Positions 13,588 through 45,223 of a stretch of DNA of 64,000 nucleotides are shown in pieces; the stretch's first letter is position 1, and every line of letters begins with the position of its first letter. The position numbers and the translations under genes are program-made. The DNA is taken from positions 27,897-91,896 of the forward strand of contig CAIJKW010000030.1 of the NCBI GenBank assembly GCA_903821355.1. Direction: 5' to 3'. Source of the DNA: an uncultured bacterium (GTDB taxonomy: Bacteria; Patescibacteriota; Minisyncoccia; Phycocordibacterales; CAIZLB01). Under the pieces are notes generated by a model. It was given only the letters and a program-made list of their open reading frames with translations, made no database searches and was not told the origin of the DNA.

Positions 13588-13594
13588 TCATGTG

Positions 13595-13676
13595 TGGGCG
13601 AGGAGGGACTCGAACCCTCAATCCTTACGGAACTAGTTCCTAAGACTAGCGCGTATACCAATTCCGCCACTCGCCC
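13595..13676 (-). tRNA. tRNA-Leu (anticodon UAG)
   Basis: Reverse complement GGGCGAG…CTCGCCCA forms a cloverleaf with anticodon loop CTTAGGA, a long variable arm and T-loop GGTTCGAGTCC. Confidence 0.8.
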
Positions 13677-13791
13677 ATATTTTGACTTTGCTTTATATCA
13701 GCTTTTTGGTTTGCTGAAATTTAAGAATTCAATATCTATATGAAGTTTAAGATTCTGGCTTAAATGTCTTCATAGAGTTATCGAACTCTTG

Positions 13792-13864
13792 TCCGCCCGG
13801 TAGGATTCGAACCTACGACCGTTCACTTAAGAGGCGACTGCTCTACCAACTGAGCTACGGGCGG
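13792..13864 (-). tRNA. tRNA-Lys (anticodon CUU)
   Basis: Reverse complement CCGCCCGTAGCTCAGTTGGTAGAGCAGTCGCCTCTTAAGTGAACGGTCGTAGGTTCGAATCCTACCGGGCGGA. Anticodon loop CTCTTAA. The top pair of the anticodon stem is non-Watson-Crick (G·A). Confidence 0.7.
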
Positions 13865-13926
13865 ATATGTTCATTATAGTAGCAAAAAAAGGTATTTAAT
13901 ACAACTATTTACGATCATGTTTGTAA

Positions 13927-14241
13927 CTATAATTCTAAGAAGATTATTGAGCAAATTCCTAGAACCATACCGACAATTTGAAGCGGGCTTAATCCTTCGT
14001 GAAAGAATACGTAACTTACCAGCAGTAATGTAGCGACGTTAAATATAACAAATATTATTGAAGCGATAGCTATGTTTTTGTATTTGAAACTAAAAGATAG
14101 AAATATTAAGGCTATTACATAAATTATTAATCCAATGACAAAAAACCAAGTGTTATTTTTTGAAACCCATTCTTTCATAAAAATATCCCCAGCTGTTAGA
14201 ACTAAACCTCCCGCTAAAACTAAGATTATCCCAGTATTCAT
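13927..14241 (-). CDS. small multidrug-resistance/DMT-like 4-TM membrane protein
   Basis: 104 aa with four hydrophobic helices (SMR/EamA-half-like topology), embedded between tRNA genes. Confidence 0.45.
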   Translation of the reverse strand: MNTGIILVLAGGLVLTAGDIFMKEWVSKNNTWFFVIGLIIYVIALIFLSFSFKYKNIAIASIIFVIFNVATLLLVSYVFFHEGLSPLQIVGMVLGICSIIFLEL

Positions 14242-14249
14242 TTTATTGG

Positions 14250-14332
14250 TGCTCAGGGCGGGACTCGAACCCGCACAGGCTTTCGCCTACAACATTTTAA
14301 GTGTTGCGTGTCTACCATTCCACCACCCGAGC
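14250..14332 (-). tRNA. tRNA-Leu (anticodon UAA)
   Basis: Reverse complement GCTCGGGTGGTGGAATGGTAGACACGCAACACTTAAAATGTTG… Anticodon loop CTTAAAA, long variable arm, T-loop GGTTCGAGTCC. Confidence 0.8.
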
Positions 14333-14800
14333 TTTTTTATTTAAGCCTCTATGAGTTGGCTGTAAACTGTGACAATTTGGACAAAGTATCTGTAGGTTAG
14401 TTAGTCTATTGTCTCTACTATCACCGTTTATGTGATCTAACTCAAGAGGTAATCTACCATCTTTTGTGGTTTTGTTCCACCCGCACATCTCACACTTTTT
14501 TTCCTTTAAACCATCTTTAAATAATCTTTTCTTAAGTTTATAACTTTGAAATGAGCTGCCTTTTACTAAAATTTCTTTAGTTGGAATAAGTGGTATTTTA
14601 TTTTAAAATTTTTTGCCCTTACTCCAACCTCTGCCTGTAAAATGTTTTATGGATAGGCCGTATTCTAAAACATATTTCTTGATTTGAGAATAGTTTCCAC
14701 CAGCTTCAACTAATCCAAGTCTTTTCAAAACTTGTCTATAGCTTGTGGAATCAGCAACTGATTTTATTAAATTGTCTTTTGACCACTTTCTTTTTCTCAT
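14312..14800 (-). pseudogene. HNH endonuclease gene interrupted by a single in-frame TAA (plus 14603-14605); C-terminal part overlaps tRNA-Leu(UAA)
   Basis: Upstream ORF 14606..14800 (MRKRKW…SKGKKF*) is in the same frame as a downstream reading frame. That frame encodes …CEMCGWNKTTKDGRLPLELDHINGDSRDNRLTNLQILCPNCHS…, a canonical HNH motif. Confidence 0.6.
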
Positions 14801-14841
14801 TTAAGAATAACAAACAAATATGTAAAAACTACTTTTACATG

Positions 14842-14914
14842 AGGCGTAGGCCGGGATCGAACCGGCGTATAACGATTTTGCAGATCGCCGCGTTAACCAC
14901 TTCGCCACTACGCC
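14842..14914 (-). tRNA. tRNA-Cys (anticodon GCA)
   Basis: Reverse complement GGCGTAGTGGCGAAGTGGTTAACGCGGCGATCTGCAAAATCGTT…GGTTCGATCCCGGCCTACGCC. Anticodon loop CTGCAAA. Confidence 0.8.
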
Positions 14915-23524: not shown

Positions 23525-23596
23525 GGGCCTATAGTTTCAATGGTAAAACGACGGTCTCCAAAACCGCAGTTCGAGGTTCGAGTCCTCGTGGGCCCG
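23525..23596 (+). tRNA. tRNA-Trp (anticodon CCA)
   Basis: GGGCCTATAGTTTCAATGGTAAAACGACGGTCTCCAAAACCGCAGTTCGAGGTTCGAGTCCTCGTGGGCCCG. Anticodon loop CTCCAAA. Confidence 0.8.
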
Positions 23597-23620
23597 CTAG
23601 AATAATGAGCGGAGCGAATA

Positions 23621-23722
23621 TATTCTAGCAGGGTGCCGCAGCGAAGCTGTGGCCCCGCGGATACCAAACTCTCAGCGAAGGGTGCCGACAGCTTGGCTGT
23701 GGCCCCGCGGAAACTAAACGTT
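23621..23722. repeat. Two tandem ~48-bp direct repeats immediately 3' of tRNA-Trp, in the leader of the MFS gene
   Basis: gggtgccgcagcgaagctgtggccccgcggataccaaac… // gggtgccgacagcttggctgtggccccgcggaaactaaac…. Confidence 0.6.
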
Positions 23723-23745
23723 AAACGAAGGAAGGTTCTACATAA

Positions 23746-41541: not shown

Positions 41542-43749
41542 CTATTTCACCACCGGAGCTTCCTTCTTCTTAAATCCACCACGCCTTCCAACTACTTTTG
41601 GCAACGCAAGAATTTCAAGCGCACGTTCTAGTGTGATTGTATAAACATCGTCAGTTTTTAGTGATCTAAAATCAGCATCATGAACAATATAAGGACCAAA
41701 TCTTCCGATGCTTGCAGTTATATTTTTGCCGCTCTCTGGGTGCTTTCCTAAAACTCTAGGAAGTGAAAGATAAACTAGGGCCTGCTCAACAGAAACGTTG
41801 CTTGGATCAACCTCTTTAGGAATTGATGCCATTCTTGGTTTTTTGTTTTCTGGGGTTTTTTCACCAAGCTGAACATAAGGACCAAATCTTCCAATTTTTG
41901 TAAAAATAGAAAGGCCTGTTGCTGGGTCAATGCCAATCGGCTCATCGGTCTTAATCAAAACTCCTTCCATTGTTAGCGCCCCATCACATTCTGGATATTT
42001 TGAACAACTCAAAAACTTTCCAGTTCTTGCGAGTTTGATAATCATGCTTGCTCCACATTTTGGACATTTGAGCGATGGGTCAGCGTCGCCAAGATTTGTA
42101 ACTTTTTCAATATCAATTTTTTCTCCAATAATTTTTGTTAGAGGATCATAAAACTTTTTAATTGTAGGAATATATTTTGCGGTACCGGCTGCAATATCGT
42201 CCAATTCATTTTCCATTTCAGCTGTGAAATCGTAATCAACATATTTACCAAAATGCTCTTCCAAAAAAGAAATCACAACTTCTCCTGTGTCAGTTGGCTT
42301 AAGTGATTTATTTATTTTCTCAATATACTGTCTTGTCTCAAGTGTTTTTATAATACTTGCATAAGTTGAAGGACGGCCAATACCTTTTTTGTCCAACTCT
42401 TTAACAAGACCCGCTTCAGAATATCTACTTGGTGGTTCTGTGAACTTTTCAATCCAGACCATTTTTTCAAGTTTCAATTTTTCATCTTTTTCTGTTTTTG
42501 GCAAAATGACATCTTCTCCAACTGCATCAGGATCTGCCCTTAGCCATCCATCGAAAATTACACGTGATCCTGTGACAGCAAAATTTGGAAGCTTGTTGTT
42601 TGTATTTGTGTCGCCATCCGCGCATGCAATTATTTTTGTTCTAGCAATTCTTGCGTCCGCCATCTGAGACGCTAGGGTTCTTGCTCGAATAAGTGCATAT
42701 AATTTCTTTTCGTCCTCATTTACACCTGCTTTTGCAATACTTAGATGAGTTGGTCTAATGGCTTCATGGGCTTCTTGTGCATTTTTGCTTGTTGATTTGA
42801 AAGCTTTTTTCTCGGCGTATTTATCGCCAAATTCTTTTTTGATAACCTCCTCAGCTTCTTTAATTGCGAGTGAGCTTAGGTTTGTACTGTCTGTACGCAT
42901 ATAAGAAATATGTCCGCTTTCATATAGCTTTTGTGCAATACCCATTGTTCTTGAAGGAGTAAATCCAAGTCTTGACGATGCAGCTTGTTGCAAAGTTGAA
43001 GTCGTGAATGGTGGGCGAGAGGTCCTTTTCATTTCAGTTTCTTCTATATCTTTCACTTTCCAGTTAGTTTTTTCACCAAGTGCGGTAATTTCTTCCGCTC
43101 TAACTTTATCTTTTATTTCCTCCGTGCAGTTCATCTGCAACAGTGCGCCGTCTTTGTTTTTAAAATCAGCCGAGATTGGATAATAGGCCTCAGGAATAAA
43201 AGCTCTGATTTCTCTTTCGCGTTCAACAAGAATACGGAGGGCGGGGGACTGAACTCTACCAGCTGAAAGACCATATCTAACCTTTTTCCAAATGACGCCA
43301 GAAAGATCGTATCCAACAAGTCTATCAAGTACACGTCTAGCTTCCTGAGCTGTTCTCAAGTTATCATCAATTTCTCTTGGATGAGCGATAGCTTCTCTGA
43401 TAGCTTCTTTTGTAATTTCATAATAGACAACACGCTTTGGATTTTTAAGACCAAGCGCTTCTTTTAGGTGCCATGCAATGGCTTCACCTTCACGGTCGGG
43501 GTCAGTTGCTAGAAGTATTGCCGATGCTTTTTTTGCGCGAGCTCTTATATCGGCAATAACTTTTTCTTTTCCAGGAGAAACTTCATAGTGAGGGACGAAG
43601 CCTGCAGGTATATCAATTGCGATTCTGTTACTCTTTGGCAAGTCTCTAATATGGCCAACTGATGCGACAACATCAAATTCACCTTCCAAATATTTGGAAA
43701 TGATTTTTGCTTTTGAAGGAGACTCAACGATCAGAAGTGTTTTGGACAT
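41542..43749 (-). CDS. topA: DNA topoisomerase I
   Basis: TOPRIM N-terminus MSKTLLIVESPSKAKIISKYLEG…, C-terminal Zn-finger CPKCGASMIIK…CSKYPEC and tail repeats. The start is taken at the internal M; the track ORF extends to 43833. Confidence 0.9.
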   Translation of the reverse strand: MSKTLLIVESPSKAKIISKYLEGEFDVVASVGHIRDLPKSNRIAIDIPAGFVPHYEVSPGKEKVIADIRARAKKASAILLATDPDREGEAIAWHLKEALGLKNPKRVVYYEITKEAIREAIAHPREIDDNLRTAQEARRVLDRLVGYDLSGVIWKKVRYGLSAGRVQSPALRILVEREREIRAFIPEAYYPISADFKNKDGALLQMNCTEEIKDKVRAEEITALGEKTNWKVKDIEETEMKRTSRPPFTTSTLQQAASSRLGFTPSRTMGIAQKLYESGHISYMRTDSTNLSSLAIKEAEEVIKKEFGDKYAEKKAFKSTSKNAQEAHEAIRPTHLSIAKAGVNEDEKKLYALIRARTLASQMADARIARTKIIACADGDTNTNNKLPNFAVTGSRVIFDGWLRADPDAVGEDVILPKTEKDEKLKLEKMVWIEKFTEPPSRYSEAGLVKELDKKGIGRPSTYASIIKTLETRQYIEKINKSLKPTDTGEVVISFLEEHFGKYVDYDFTAEMENELDDIAAGTAKYIPTIKKFYDPLTKIIGEKIDIEKVTNLGDADPSLKCPKCGASMIIKLARTGKFLSCSKYPECDGALTMEGVLIKTDEPIGIDPATGLSIFTKIGRFGPYVQLGEKTPENKKPRMASIPKEVDPSNVSVEQALVYLSLPRVLGKHPESGKNITASIGRFGPYIVHDADFRSLKTDDVYTITLERALEILALPKVVGRRGGFKKKEAPVVK

Positions 43750-43793
43750 GTCTATAATTAATACTACATATATTGCGATTGTGCAAATTTTGA

Positions 43794-43834
43794 CAAAAAA
43801 AATGGTTGAGCGCAGCACCTTGCGCCCAACCATT
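43794..43834 (-). terminator. Strong rho-independent terminator on the minus strand, upstream of topA
   Basis: On the minus strand: GGUUGGGCGCAAGGUGCUGCGCUCAACC followed by UUUUUUUU. Confidence 0.7.
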
Positions 43835-44155
43835 CTGTGTTCGGAGTGCGGACACGAAGTCCGCCATCTTATTGAGCACGCACGCCTCCACCTGGTGGAA
43901 CGTACACCCTTCGAAGATTTTTTCTCCTCTCTGATATTTATTGCCTAAACGGCCTGTGGCATCAGATTGACCACGTAGTTCAGCCAAGATAACGAGGCTA
44001 GCTTTTACATAAGGTGCTAAGTCAAAAAGTAAGCTTACAAGGAGGCCGAGGACTGAGACAGTCCGAAGACCGGCCGGGTTTGTTTTAAACTTTTTGACAC
44101 CAATTGGGGGATACGACCGCCGCTGAACTCATTGCCATGATTTCATTGGTTTCTA
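43797..44155 (-). ncRNA. Candidate ~360-nt structured small RNA gene (identity unresolved) between dprA and topA
   Basis: ORF-free, GC-enriched. Minus-strand promoter-like TTGAAT-N17-TACTAT (plus ~44158-44190). Stable hairpins (GGACUG-UCU-CAGUCC; GCGGAC-UUCGU-GUCCGC) and the strong terminator at 43794..43834. Confidence 0.35.
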
Positions 44156-44200
44156 TATAGTATATTTTTTTACGATTTTATTCAACTCTAACTCTTTACC

Positions 44201-45223
44201 TCAGGAATTATCTTTGAAATTAACATTAGAACTACTGGTTGGTCTAGATTGAAATTCTACACTCAGCTTTGAATAAACTTTTCCATATCTCTCTTCCACC
44301 AGTCCTCGCATTTGAAGCATTGAGACAGTAACGAGGACTTTTGAAATATTGAATCCCGTTTTGTGACAAATTTCATCAGGGGTGATGGGGGATTCTAATA
44401 AATCTAAGATCTCCTTTTCTTCGCTAGAGCATGAGTCAAAAAGCGACTTAGAAACTTCTTTGATTGAGTATTCTGTAATACCAAGAGCGTCCGTTATGTC
44501 TACAGCTGAAGAAATCGGAACAGCACCTTGTTTAATTAATTCCCTTGGTCCTTCTGAATGAACACTAAAGATAGAACCGGGGACGGCTAAGACGTCTCTA
44601 TTGTATTCTGCCGCAAGCCTTGCAGTAATCATTGTTCCAGAATCTCTCTTTCCTTCTATCACAACAGTAAGATCTGAAATTCCCGCCATGATTCTATTGC
44701 GTAACGGAAAAGTCCAAACATTGGCACGAGCTTCGGGTTCAAATTCTGAAAGTAAGACGCCGCCACTTTCATAAATTTGTTCAGCAAGCCTTAGATTGGT
44801 TCTGGGATACAGAACATCCACATGCAGACCTGACCCTGGAATTGCAATACACGGAATGCCGTGCCTTAGACATAATCTATGTACAATACTATCTATGCCA
44901 ATTGCTAAGCCTGAAACTACCGCAATCTTCTCCTTATATAGTGCAAGTCCCTCGATTAACTTTTCACATGCCAATTGTCCATACTCTGTATAAGAACGTG
45001 AACCTACAATACATATGATTTTTAGGTTTTCATCATGGGAAATACGCCAGAGCAAGTTTTTATCACTTGACCTTGTGGGTTGAGTAATGTCAGCCTGCTT
45101 CTGATAATCTAGCTCTGTAGAGGGATCAGACCCTATATAATAAAGCGTCCTTGGCGGGTCACTAATTTGTCTTAATAATCTTGGATAATCCGTTGCTTTT
45201 AATTGTTTTGTTTGCATGGTCAA
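44201..45223 (-). CDS. dprA: DNA-processing protein DprA (Smf)
   Basis: Rossmann-like DprA core (IVGSRSYTEYG…VVSGLAIGIDSIVHR…) plus C-terminal winged-helix domain. Confidence 0.85.
   Translation of the reverse strand: MTMQTKQLKATDYPRLLRQISDPPRTLYYIGSDPSTELDYQKQADITQPTRSSDKNLLWRISHDENLKIICIVGSRSYTEYGQLACEKLIEGLALYKEKIAVVSGLAIGIDSIVHRLCLRHGIPCIAIPGSGLHVDVLYPRTNLRLAEQIYESGGVLLSEFEPEARANVWTFPLRNRIMAGISDLTVVIEGKRDSGTMITARLAAEYNRDVLAVPGSIFSVHSEGPRELIKQGAVPISSAVDITDALGITEYSIKEVSKSLFDSCSSEEKEILDLLESPITPDEICHKTGFNISKVLVTVSMLQMRGLVEERYGKVYSKLSVEFQSRPTSSSNVNFKDNS

Follow-up and report, generated by a model that had tools for sequence, protein, structure and literature searches.

Does the gap between the dprA and topA genes of an uncultured patescibacterium hold a gene of its own and, if so, of what kind? 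On the minus strand of the window (the whole 64-kb stretch of contig CAIJKW010000030.1 that was analysed, position 1 being its first letter), DprA (44201–45223) and TopA (41542–43749) are separated by 451 nt, and an earlier note made from the letters of the DNA had placed in this gap an independent structured RNA gene of ~360 nt. It listed 6S RNA, a long-form signal recognition particle (SRP) RNA, a divergent transfer-messenger RNA (tmRNA) and a lineage-specific small RNA (sRNA) as candidate identities. Our comparative analysis shows that, as judged from sequence, the gene is real, conserved and structured, the original proposal being strengthened by six homologues with compensatory changes, and we consider it probable that it specifies a new stand-alone, lineage-restricted, dispensable structured RNA acting in trans. 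In Patescibacteria (the candidate phyla radiation) the genome is tiny and non-coding DNA is very scarce, and to our knowledge almost nothing is known of their regulatory or structural RNAs; our literature searches found no described Patescibacteria RNA of such kind.

The guanine-plus-cytosine (G+C) fraction across the RNA region is 0.44–0.58, as compared with 0.26–0.42 in the flanks, which agrees with the G+C enrichment noticed before. The minimum free energy (MFE) of the region is −125.7 kcal/mol, whereas shuffled versions reach −102.5 ± 5.9 kcal/mol (z = −3.9), with none of 100 shuffles folding as well; combined with the G+C content, the promoter-like site and the terminator, this result indicates that the initial observation was correct. 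The TTGAAT-N17-TACTAT motif reported right after the dprA stop codon is indeed present. It matches the promoter consensus at 8 of 12 positions, a score that is weak alone and leaves the site out of the listing of our consensus scan (threshold 9 of 12), and we call it a promoter not because of this score but because the boxes are conserved at a fixed position in all seven members of the family described below. The six homologues display a (T)TGACA-like or TAGACA −35 box, a 16–17-nt spacer and a TAnnAT box, all at a constant distance from the first helix (P1), with the TAnnAT box lying ~7 nt upstream of that helix in 7/7 members. We thus infer that transcription of the RNA begins near 44150 at a sigma-70-type promoter of its own, situated immediately behind the dprA stop codon. 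At the other end, 45 nt upstream of the topA start, the terminator with eight U residues that had been noticed just before topA can be read from the sequence as a 12-bp stem (43833–43802) with an 8-nt loop (a terminator scan lists a longer version, 43836–43799, with 16 pairs), and all seven members finish in a G+C hairpin with a conserved CAAGGURC loop followed by a U run. Two details of the earlier note have to be put less strictly. The gap is only loosely free of open reading frames (ORFs), as mechanical ORFs of 84 and 87 aa with TTG starts overlap the region; these are not among the RNA-strand ATG ORFs of the homologues. The mention of a UUCG-type loop is roughly right, since GGUC-UUCG-GACU and GCGGAC-UUCGU-GUCCGC are both possible, each in a part that varies among homologues.

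TopA and DprA place the window in Patescibacteria, in a lineage resembling the class Paceibacteria. The nearest genomes are uncultured lake bins with TopA 90–92% identical, and DprA has ~15 close relatives at 72–92% identity before the next drop to 48%, so the host clade appears to be narrow and isolated. A BLASTN search of the RNA against 80 topA loci gave no match, because the RNA diverges too fast; the homologues were recovered by aligning syntenic gaps (those of loci L002 and L001 first), followed by nhmmer, inspection by eye and a covariance model. This yielded seven distinct sequences of 294–357 nt, the window included, all from one narrow Paceibacteria clade; the versions in the relatives measure 294–344 nt. 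The full-length homologues are located in L091 (865–1189), L002 (2608–2951), L001 (1905–2244), L127 (2651–2964), L081 (11013–11306) and L128 (5985–6287); the L091 version recurs in L124 and L125, that of L081 in L082–L084 and L094, and that of L128, a more divergent member, in L129. All seven RNAs are encoded downstream of dprA on the same strand, and directly so except in L127, where a 391-aa ORF intervenes. The RNA evolves very fast: between genomes with TopA 92% identical several blocks are kept and many segments are replaced, with the 5′ two-thirds conserved in blocks and the remainder variable. No member was found with the core covariance model beside topA in ~70 other Patescibacteria loci. 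A pattern scan of one metagenome gave 36 matches, the real members among which were only L091 and L094, both at the dprA locus, and nhmmer was negative on 120 chance loci from pattern scans. Loci L121–L123 were considered as members on account of a downstream ATCAGA, but the DNA around it is AT-rich and shows none of the RNA's other features, and the motif was judged a chance occurrence.

The variation among the seven sequences is compensatory. In helices P3–P6 and pseudoknot B, 94.1% of the alignment cells are paired, as opposed to 20–43% when the partner strand is slid, seven pairs are changed on both sides, and the covariation score was reached by none of 500 shuffles, in an alignment that was fitted to the model and so favours the structure. 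In P1, the kissing loop and the terminator, which were aligned plainly with MAFFT, 91.2% of the cells are paired versus 28–45% when slid, another seven pairs are changed on both sides, and again none of 500 shuffles attained the score. The conservation and covariation that the earlier note suggested looking for in related genomes are therefore found, with six homologues and 14 pairs changed on both sides. Of the marks of a stand-alone structured non-coding RNA, compensatory structure (91–94% paired versus 20–45% slid), a non-coding sequence and a terminator are present, and a putative promoter is supported by its conserved boxes.

From 5′ to 3′, the RNA would fold into a P1-closed domain, an H-type pseudoknot (pseudoknot A plus P3) with the variable P2 in its first loop, the P4 hairpin, a further H-type pseudoknot (made up of P5 and pseudoknot B, its last loop containing P6 and an A-rich strand), the P7 domain and the terminator (table 1). 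P1 is complementary in 7/7 members, its closing pair being U-A in two and C-G in three by hand registration (C-G in two, U-A in two and L127 gapped by the MAFFT count); its interior is variable and much shorter in L081 and L128. Pseudoknot A is likewise complementary in 7/7, with a bulge in three, and its cognate duplexes average −5.1 kcal/mol as compared with −2.6 kcal/mol for non-cognate ones, making it a probable helix. Its 3′ strand follows on from the 5′ strand of P3 without any linker, as in an H-type pseudoknot. P3 itself is 88.6% paired, with two pairs changed on both sides (U-A/G-C, and C-G/U-A in L081), and its variants in homologues include AGCUG with CAGCU and AGUU with AACU. At the site of P2, L001, L002 and L127 have a short hairpin, GGG-AUCUACUAYG-CCC, instead, and P4 is much longer in L128 (CCUAAC..GUUAGG). 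P5 is the most conserved block of the family, with an outer pair that is G-C, A-U or C-G, and in P6 a G-C pair is replaced by A-U in L001 and L002, where this hairpin encloses an extra one. Pseudoknot B is well supported by the alignment: the UCUGAU-AUCAGA pairing is 100% complementary in 7/7, both sides being changed in L127 (UCUGGU with ACCAGA) and a G-U pair occurring in L081. The strands of P7 stay complementary despite sequence change (GGAG/CUCC, GGUAA/UUACC, GGAUAUC/GAUAUCC, GGUA/UACC, GGUUU/AAACC and GGUA/UGCC), and cognate duplexes average −4.1 kcal/mol versus −1.35 kcal/mol for non-cognate ones. In the terminator stem 91.8% of the cells are paired and five pairs are changed on both sides (plain MAFFT alignment, seven members), each strand matching its own partner far better, by duplex energies, than the partners from other members. 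A hammerhead-like CUGAUGA was sought in the P5 loop and rejected, as only CUGAUGC or CUGAUCC is present and, by eye, the matching core is absent. We also note that a 26-nt stretch of the P1 interior (44123–44148; CTGAACTCATTGCCATGATTTCATTG on the plus strand) is 73% identical to dprA coding sequence at 44674–44699, probably by chance.

Table 1. Features of the putative RNA gene and of the adjoining topA promoter region in the window, with the short ORFs of the P1 domain.
Feature	Position	Strand	Description
Whole RNA gene	43795–44150	minus	~356 nt, from the putative start to the end of the U run
Promoter-like site	44157–44185	minus	TTGAAT (44185–44180), 17 nt, TACTAT (44162–44157); immediately 3′ of the dprA stop codon
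P1 domain	44099–44150	minus	ACCAAU (44150–44145) pairs with AUUGGU (44104–44099); encloses hairpins UCAU-GGCA-AUGA (44140–44129) and GCGGCGG..CCCCC (44123–44106)
P1-domain mini-ORF, window	44085–44138	minus	17 codons, ATG; MAMSSAAVVSPNWCQKV
P1-domain mini-ORF, homologues			L091, MWFIANEFYKGQIPNWCQEV; L002, MISWQLSSAGACVPCWCQMS; L001, MSLGGIRSPCWCQQS; L127, MGIYPHCWCQTCSK
Pseudoknot A, 5′ strand	44089–44096	minus	CAAAAAGU; pairs with 44030–44023
P2 (variable hairpin)	44044–44075	minus	GGCCGG..UCGGCC, inner hairpin GGACUG-UCU-CAGUCC; from the MFE fold
P3	44000–44035	minus	AGCUU (44035–44031) pairs with AAGCU (44004–44000); encloses the pseudoknot A 3′ strand ACUUUUUG (44030–44023) and loop L3
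Kissing pairing, 5′ partner	44011–44017	minus	GCACCUU in loop L3 of the first pseudoknot
P4 (hairpin)	43982–43999	minus	AGCC..GGCU; 89.3% paired, two pairs changed on both sides
P5 (hairpin)	43956–43974	minus	GUGGU (43974–43970) and GCCAC (43960–43956); 96% paired; loop holds UCUGAU (43966–43961), the 5′ strand of pseudoknot B
P6 (small hairpin)	43943–43953	minus	GCC-GUUUA-GGC; 95% paired
Pseudoknot B, 3′ strand	43930–43935	minus	AUCAGA; A-rich linker AAUAAAU just before
P7 domain	43843–43927	minus	GGAG (43927–43924) pairs with CUCC (43846–43843); variable interior hairpins; GAAC after
Intrinsic terminator	43795–43833	minus	AUGGUUGGGCGC (43833–43822), loop AAGGUGCU, GCGCUCAACCAU (43813–43802), U run of eight (43802–43795)
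Kissing pairing, 3′ partner	43815–43821	minus	AAGGUGC in the terminator loop
topA promoter region and very short leader	43750–43794	minus	AAATTTGCACAA..TATATGTAGTATTAATTATAGAC, ATG 43749; outside the RNA

The most striking feature of the RNA is a kissing pairing between loop L3 of the first pseudoknot (GYACCUU) and the loop of the RNA's own terminator (AAGGURC). All seven pairs are intact in 7/7 sequences, and position 2 is C-G in three of them (GCACCUU with AAGGUGC) and U-A in the other four (GUACCUU with AAGGUAC). Such a contact would tie the 3′ end of the RNA back onto the core, and a terminator hairpin locked to the body of the molecule should also shield it from 3′ exonucleases. Mimicry of a Shine–Dalgarno or anti-Shine–Dalgarno sequence by AAGGUG and CACCUU was considered as an explanation of the two motifs and rejected because they covary with each other and not with 16S ribosomal RNA, four members carrying AAGGUAC and GUACCUU.

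To what known kind of RNA could this molecule belong? All 4227 models of Rfam 15 were run at the gathering threshold on the window, at E ≤ 10 on the 701-nt region around the gene and at E ≤ 1 on five homologous loci. In the 64-kb window only transfer RNA (tRNA) genes were recognised, with no tmRNA, RNase P, SRP or 6S gene, and nothing credible was returned for the region or for the homologous loci; ARAGORN found no tmRNA, standard or permuted. The Rfam search recommended by the earlier note, with its tmRNA, 6S, SRP and RNase P models, thus matched no family, and both programs uphold the note's own failure to find hallmarks of tmRNA or RNase P RNA. Among the identities it had listed, 6S RNA, long-form SRP RNA and divergent tmRNA drop out, since Rfam and ARAGORN give no signal and the defining features are absent; a lineage-specific sRNA is the one that fits, with the qualification that the RNA, given its two pseudoknots and a terminator loop that kisses another of its loops, is far more elaborate than a typical base-pairing sRNA.

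The defining features were looked for one family at a time. The RNA resembles tmRNA (ssrA) in its similar length and in its consecutive H-type pseudoknots with hairpins in their loops, but its two ends do not pair with each other, it lacks a CCA context and it appears to be dispensable; its 5′ end pairs with positions 47–52 (P1) rather than with the 3′ end, so that there is no acceptor stem, and neither is there a T-arm GGUUCGA, the hairpins upstream of the terminator having variable sequences that are not a T-loop. The place of a tag frame would be the ~26 nt between the pseudoknots, which are mostly P4 and contain no conserved ORF. What it shares with RNase P RNA (rnpB) is a similar length and a compaction by long-range pairings. 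The GGAAAGUCC and ACAGAA..CGGCUUA motifs of the RNase P helix P4 are absent, as are CR-I/CR-V, a P1 formed by the two ends and any Rfam signal; the ACAGAA of the window is not conserved in homologues, and close relatives have lost the gene at this locus. A 6S RNA would be a rod of ~180–200 nt, closed by its own two ends and with a large central bubble, unlike the multi-domain arrangement with a local P1 and pseudoknots seen here, and no Rfam 6S match was obtained. For SRP RNA there is no model match, and no candidate domain IV hairpin (helix 8 with symmetric and asymmetric loops and a GNAR tetraloop) is conserved in the alignment.

Ornate RNAs and riboswitches (OLE, ROOL, GOLLD, raiA, HEARO and cobalamin) gave no covariance-model match either. 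In general character, however, the RNA is like the raiA motif RNA, OLE, ROOL and GOLLD, which are stand-alone non-coding RNAs of a few hundred nt with a patchy distribution, many helices, pseudoknots and covarying loop–loop contacts, and in which structure outlasts sequence. It differs from them in matching no Rfam model, in being smaller than OLE, ROOL and GOLLD, in its restriction to a single genomic position within one narrow Paceibacteria clade, and in that one of the kissing partners is the loop of its own intrinsic terminator. We therefore regard it as a new family that joins the orphan structured RNAs already known from bacteria, and as an unusual one for its genome-reduced host from the candidate phyla radiation, its narrow and patchy distribution and the contact with the terminator loop. 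Standard RNA searches (Rfam, ARAGORN) miss the gene, which is a warning for annotation.

Several relatives lack the RNA at the dprA–topA locus (L003, L004, L085, L086, L130 and L131; only this locus was examined in them), and remnants of it can be discerned in some. In L085 (10945–11020) and L130 (4988–5063) a −35-like box is fused to the last ~45 nt and the terminator, the terminator loop in L085 being mutated to CAAAGUGC, and in L004 (2930–2965) only GGCTTTTTTTT (tail GGCUUUUUUUU) is left. RNA-bearing and RNA-lacking lineages interleave in a rough neighbour-joining tree of DprA which, considered together with the remnants, indicates that the ancestor of the clade probably had the RNA and that three or more losses followed. 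As it is deleted at this locus in several relatives, it is probably not an essential housekeeping RNA and, judged from the locus, appears to be a dispensable accessory gene. By eye, the groupings among the RNA sequences are broadly congruent with the DprA tree (the window with L091, L001 with L002, and L081 and L128 divergent), and this congruence and the fixed position suggest vertical inheritance rather than transfer. The gap itself is hypervariable among close relatives, ranging from ~70 nt to 1.5 kb: it consists of ~70 nt only in L004 and L086, contains a 183-aa orphan ORF in L003, a NUDIX gene on the opposite strand in L085 and L130 and a minus-strand ORF 73 nt after dprA in L131, and holds the RNA, alone or with orphan ORFs, in the window, L002, L001, L125, L081 and L127. 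The orphan ORFs of the gap (61–183 aa) have no match in Pfam, PADLOC or NCBIfam.

As for the mode of action, nearly all conserved bases are engaged in helices or long-range pairings and no free seed is left, which points to an RNA that acts in trans by its shape. It would then offer a protein partner a stable scaffold or decoy, or self-associate, rather than work as an antisense sRNA. In this proposed mode only, it may be likened to 6S RNA, CsrB-type RNAs and Y RNA, abundant stable RNAs that bind a protein in trans, although it has neither the central-bubble rod of 6S RNA nor the repeated GGA of CsrB nor the Ro-binding stem of Y RNA. The elaborate fold is kept while sequence and neighbourhood change fast, so selection must notice the RNA, and yet its loss is tolerated. 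The RNA is also a compact candidate for structural work and for a search for RNA-binding partners in bacteria not yet grown alone.

A number of points weigh against this interpretation. The promoter, the transcript ends and the abundance of the RNA are all inferred, and the case for the proposed shape-based function is made from analogy and from the fact that no conserved single strand is left free. The family comprises just seven distinct sequences, all of a single clade; several of the compensatory changes may each have arisen once and been passed on to more than one member, and the shuffle control ignores relatedness, so the counts obtained from seven related sequences do not represent independent events. 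Pseudoknot A is the least secure of the helices, because it brings an A run together with a U run and these pair across members too. Absence was read at the dprA locus, and relocation of the RNA is a less probable alternative to its loss. Finally, five of the seven members have a 14–20-codon ATG ORF in the P1 domain, to which we return below.

Unlikely, although it survives better than the other alternatives, is the idea that the RNA is cargo of an accessory hotspot used in conflict between the cell and mobile elements or phages, that is, a decoy, antitoxin-like or anti-defence RNA. The patchy presence of the RNA in a hypervariable gap with orphan ORFs of 61–183 aa and a NUDIX gene would suit such a role, as would the 391-aa ORF of L127 (1287–2462). 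This ORF belongs to a Patescibacteria family labelled Pfam PF26125 ‘AcrVA2-like’, a label that stems from weak precomputed annotation of homologues, and had no match in our local copy of Pfam. A homologue in another patescibacterium (L256, 5001–6167) occurs with RhuM, Bro-N and PIF1-helicase genes in an insertion within a ribosomal-protein operon that looks like a mobile element. On the other hand, the AcrVA2-like gene adjoins the RNA in L127 only, and no RNA was found beside its homologues elsewhere; no repeats flank the RNA gene, PADLOC gives no match for the neighbouring ORFs, searches of phage and plasmid collections had no match, and neither had a scan of IMG/VR with an extended motif (the pattern having been checked on known loci). 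The fixed position and the congruence by eye with the DprA tree also speak for vertical inheritance. With regard to the 391-aa family, we note in passing that the same ORF follows dprA on the contig of DprA P0002 and that the C-terminus of the protein is rich in Arg, Trp and Cys.

The covariation of the kissing loops may fit a contact within one molecule or between molecules alike. In ROOL and GOLLD, loop–loop pairings that had first been recognised by covariation and taken for tertiary contacts proved to link separate RNA chains (PMC12286853). By analogy, the RNA considered here might form head-to-tail dimers or larger RNA-only complexes and, sitting in an accessory hotspot, might possibly be used in cell–phage or cell–host conflict; we hold this, too, to be doubtful. 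If true, the ultra-small Patescibacteria would have yielded their first known ornate RNA with a capacity to self-assemble.

It is improbable that the structured RNA, which we prefer to see as a free molecule, is instead a cis element, either a long structured 3′ untranslated region of dprA with its terminator, or a leader resembling a riboswitch and using the kissing contact to tune read-through into the genes behind it. The RNA always follows dprA on the same strand, and in L085 and L130 this terminator still stands right behind dprA, so that its hairpin terminates dprA as well. The RNA is followed by small ORFs in L001, L125 and L081, and in cobalamin riboswitches a loop of the aptamer is known to contact one of the expression platform, an arrangement that resembles the present pairing of an internal loop with the loop of a downstream expression or termination hairpin. 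However, the RNA matches no riboswitch model, cobalamin included, has no regulated gene downstream, and employs only loop bases for the kissing pairing, leaving the terminator stem intact and without competition, so no antiterminator alternative is evident. In addition, the promoter-like site lies between the dprA stop codon and P1 in 7/7 members, and its boxes are kept in L127 even though the 391-aa gene parts dprA from the RNA. In the window and L002 the RNA is followed only by topA, which has its own conserved promoter: the block AAATTTGCACAA..TAGTATTAATTATA is found directly upstream of topA in the RNA-lacking L004, L086, L003 and L085 as well, which argues that topA is independent of the RNA as a leader, and other genes separate the RNA from topA in L001, L125 and L081. 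As to topA itself, its true start is ATG 43749 (MSKTLLIVESPSKAK...), and the upstream block AAATTTGCACAA-N-ATATATGTAGTATTAATTATA (43750–43795) is near invariant in the clade, leaving a few bases to the ATG and no Shine–Dalgarno sequence, so the topA messenger may be leaderless or near-leaderless. At the opposite border, the mechanical DprA ORF opens at TTG 45223 (LTMQTKQ...), the ATG at 45217, two codons in, being a likelier start.

A small protein gene, in which the 14–20-codon ORF of the P1 domain ending in ..(N/C)WCQ.. would be translated and the rest would be an untranslated region, is very improbable. The ATG ORFs of the five members do run through the conserved UUGGUGUCAA. Yet they are missing from L081 and L128, their N-terminal parts are unrelated and open with different ATGs, the frames being joined by 1-nt indels, and the shared C-terminus is nothing but the conserved 3′ strand of P1, which covaries with the 5′ strand. 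The ATG lies within a helix, 6–22 nt from the presumed transcript start and without a Shine–Dalgarno sequence, and ~280 nt of conserved covarying structure follow downstream. We judge the mini-ORF to be a by-product of the conserved helix strand; as no ORF occurs in every member and the indel lengths are not divisible by three, the gene is, on this sequence evidence, not protein-coding.

A divergent housekeeping RNA (tmRNA, RNase P RNA, 6S or SRP RNA) is hardly credible: even if Patescibacteria often carry unusual versions of conserved molecules, ~300–355 nt would suit tmRNA or RNase P RNA, the promoter and terminator are strong, the chain of H-type pseudoknots recalls tmRNA and no such gene is recognisable elsewhere in the window (only 64 kb of the genome), neither the region nor five homologous loci give an Rfam match, ARAGORN finds no tmRNA, the features that define these RNAs are absent, and the gene evolves very fast between genomes with TopA 92% identical and has been deleted from this locus, with remnants remaining, in several close relatives.

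The dprA–topA gaps of other Patescibacteria contain small ORFs or unrelated short elements, none of them related to the RNA described here. The gap of L035 (2563–3001) has repeated GCGACCTGCCTCTAACGGGATGA-like units; L010 (1566–1782), L012 (2781–3001) and L013 (2771–3001) have in common a gap of ~220 nt with a hairpin terminator; and the gaps of L051, L052 and L075 encode a small Gly-rich membrane-type peptide (MKTLIFIGITVGG...).

Two further observations concern non-coding parts of the window away from this locus. Four tRNA genes (Leu-tag, Lys-ctt, Leu-taa and Cys-gca) are clustered on the minus strand at 13594–14914, separated by gaps of ~110–510 nt that hold only short mechanical ORFs and in which Rfam at the gathering threshold finds nothing; group I introns and undetected tRNAs have been reported from Patescibacteria (PMC13011429). 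Right after tRNA-Trp (23525–23597), a G+C-rich 50-nt unit (AGGGTGCCGCAGCGAAGCTGTGGCCCCGCGGAAACCAAACGCTAAACGA) is repeated 2.1 times at 23630–23731, perhaps representing two hairpins or terminators, or else a small repetitive element.

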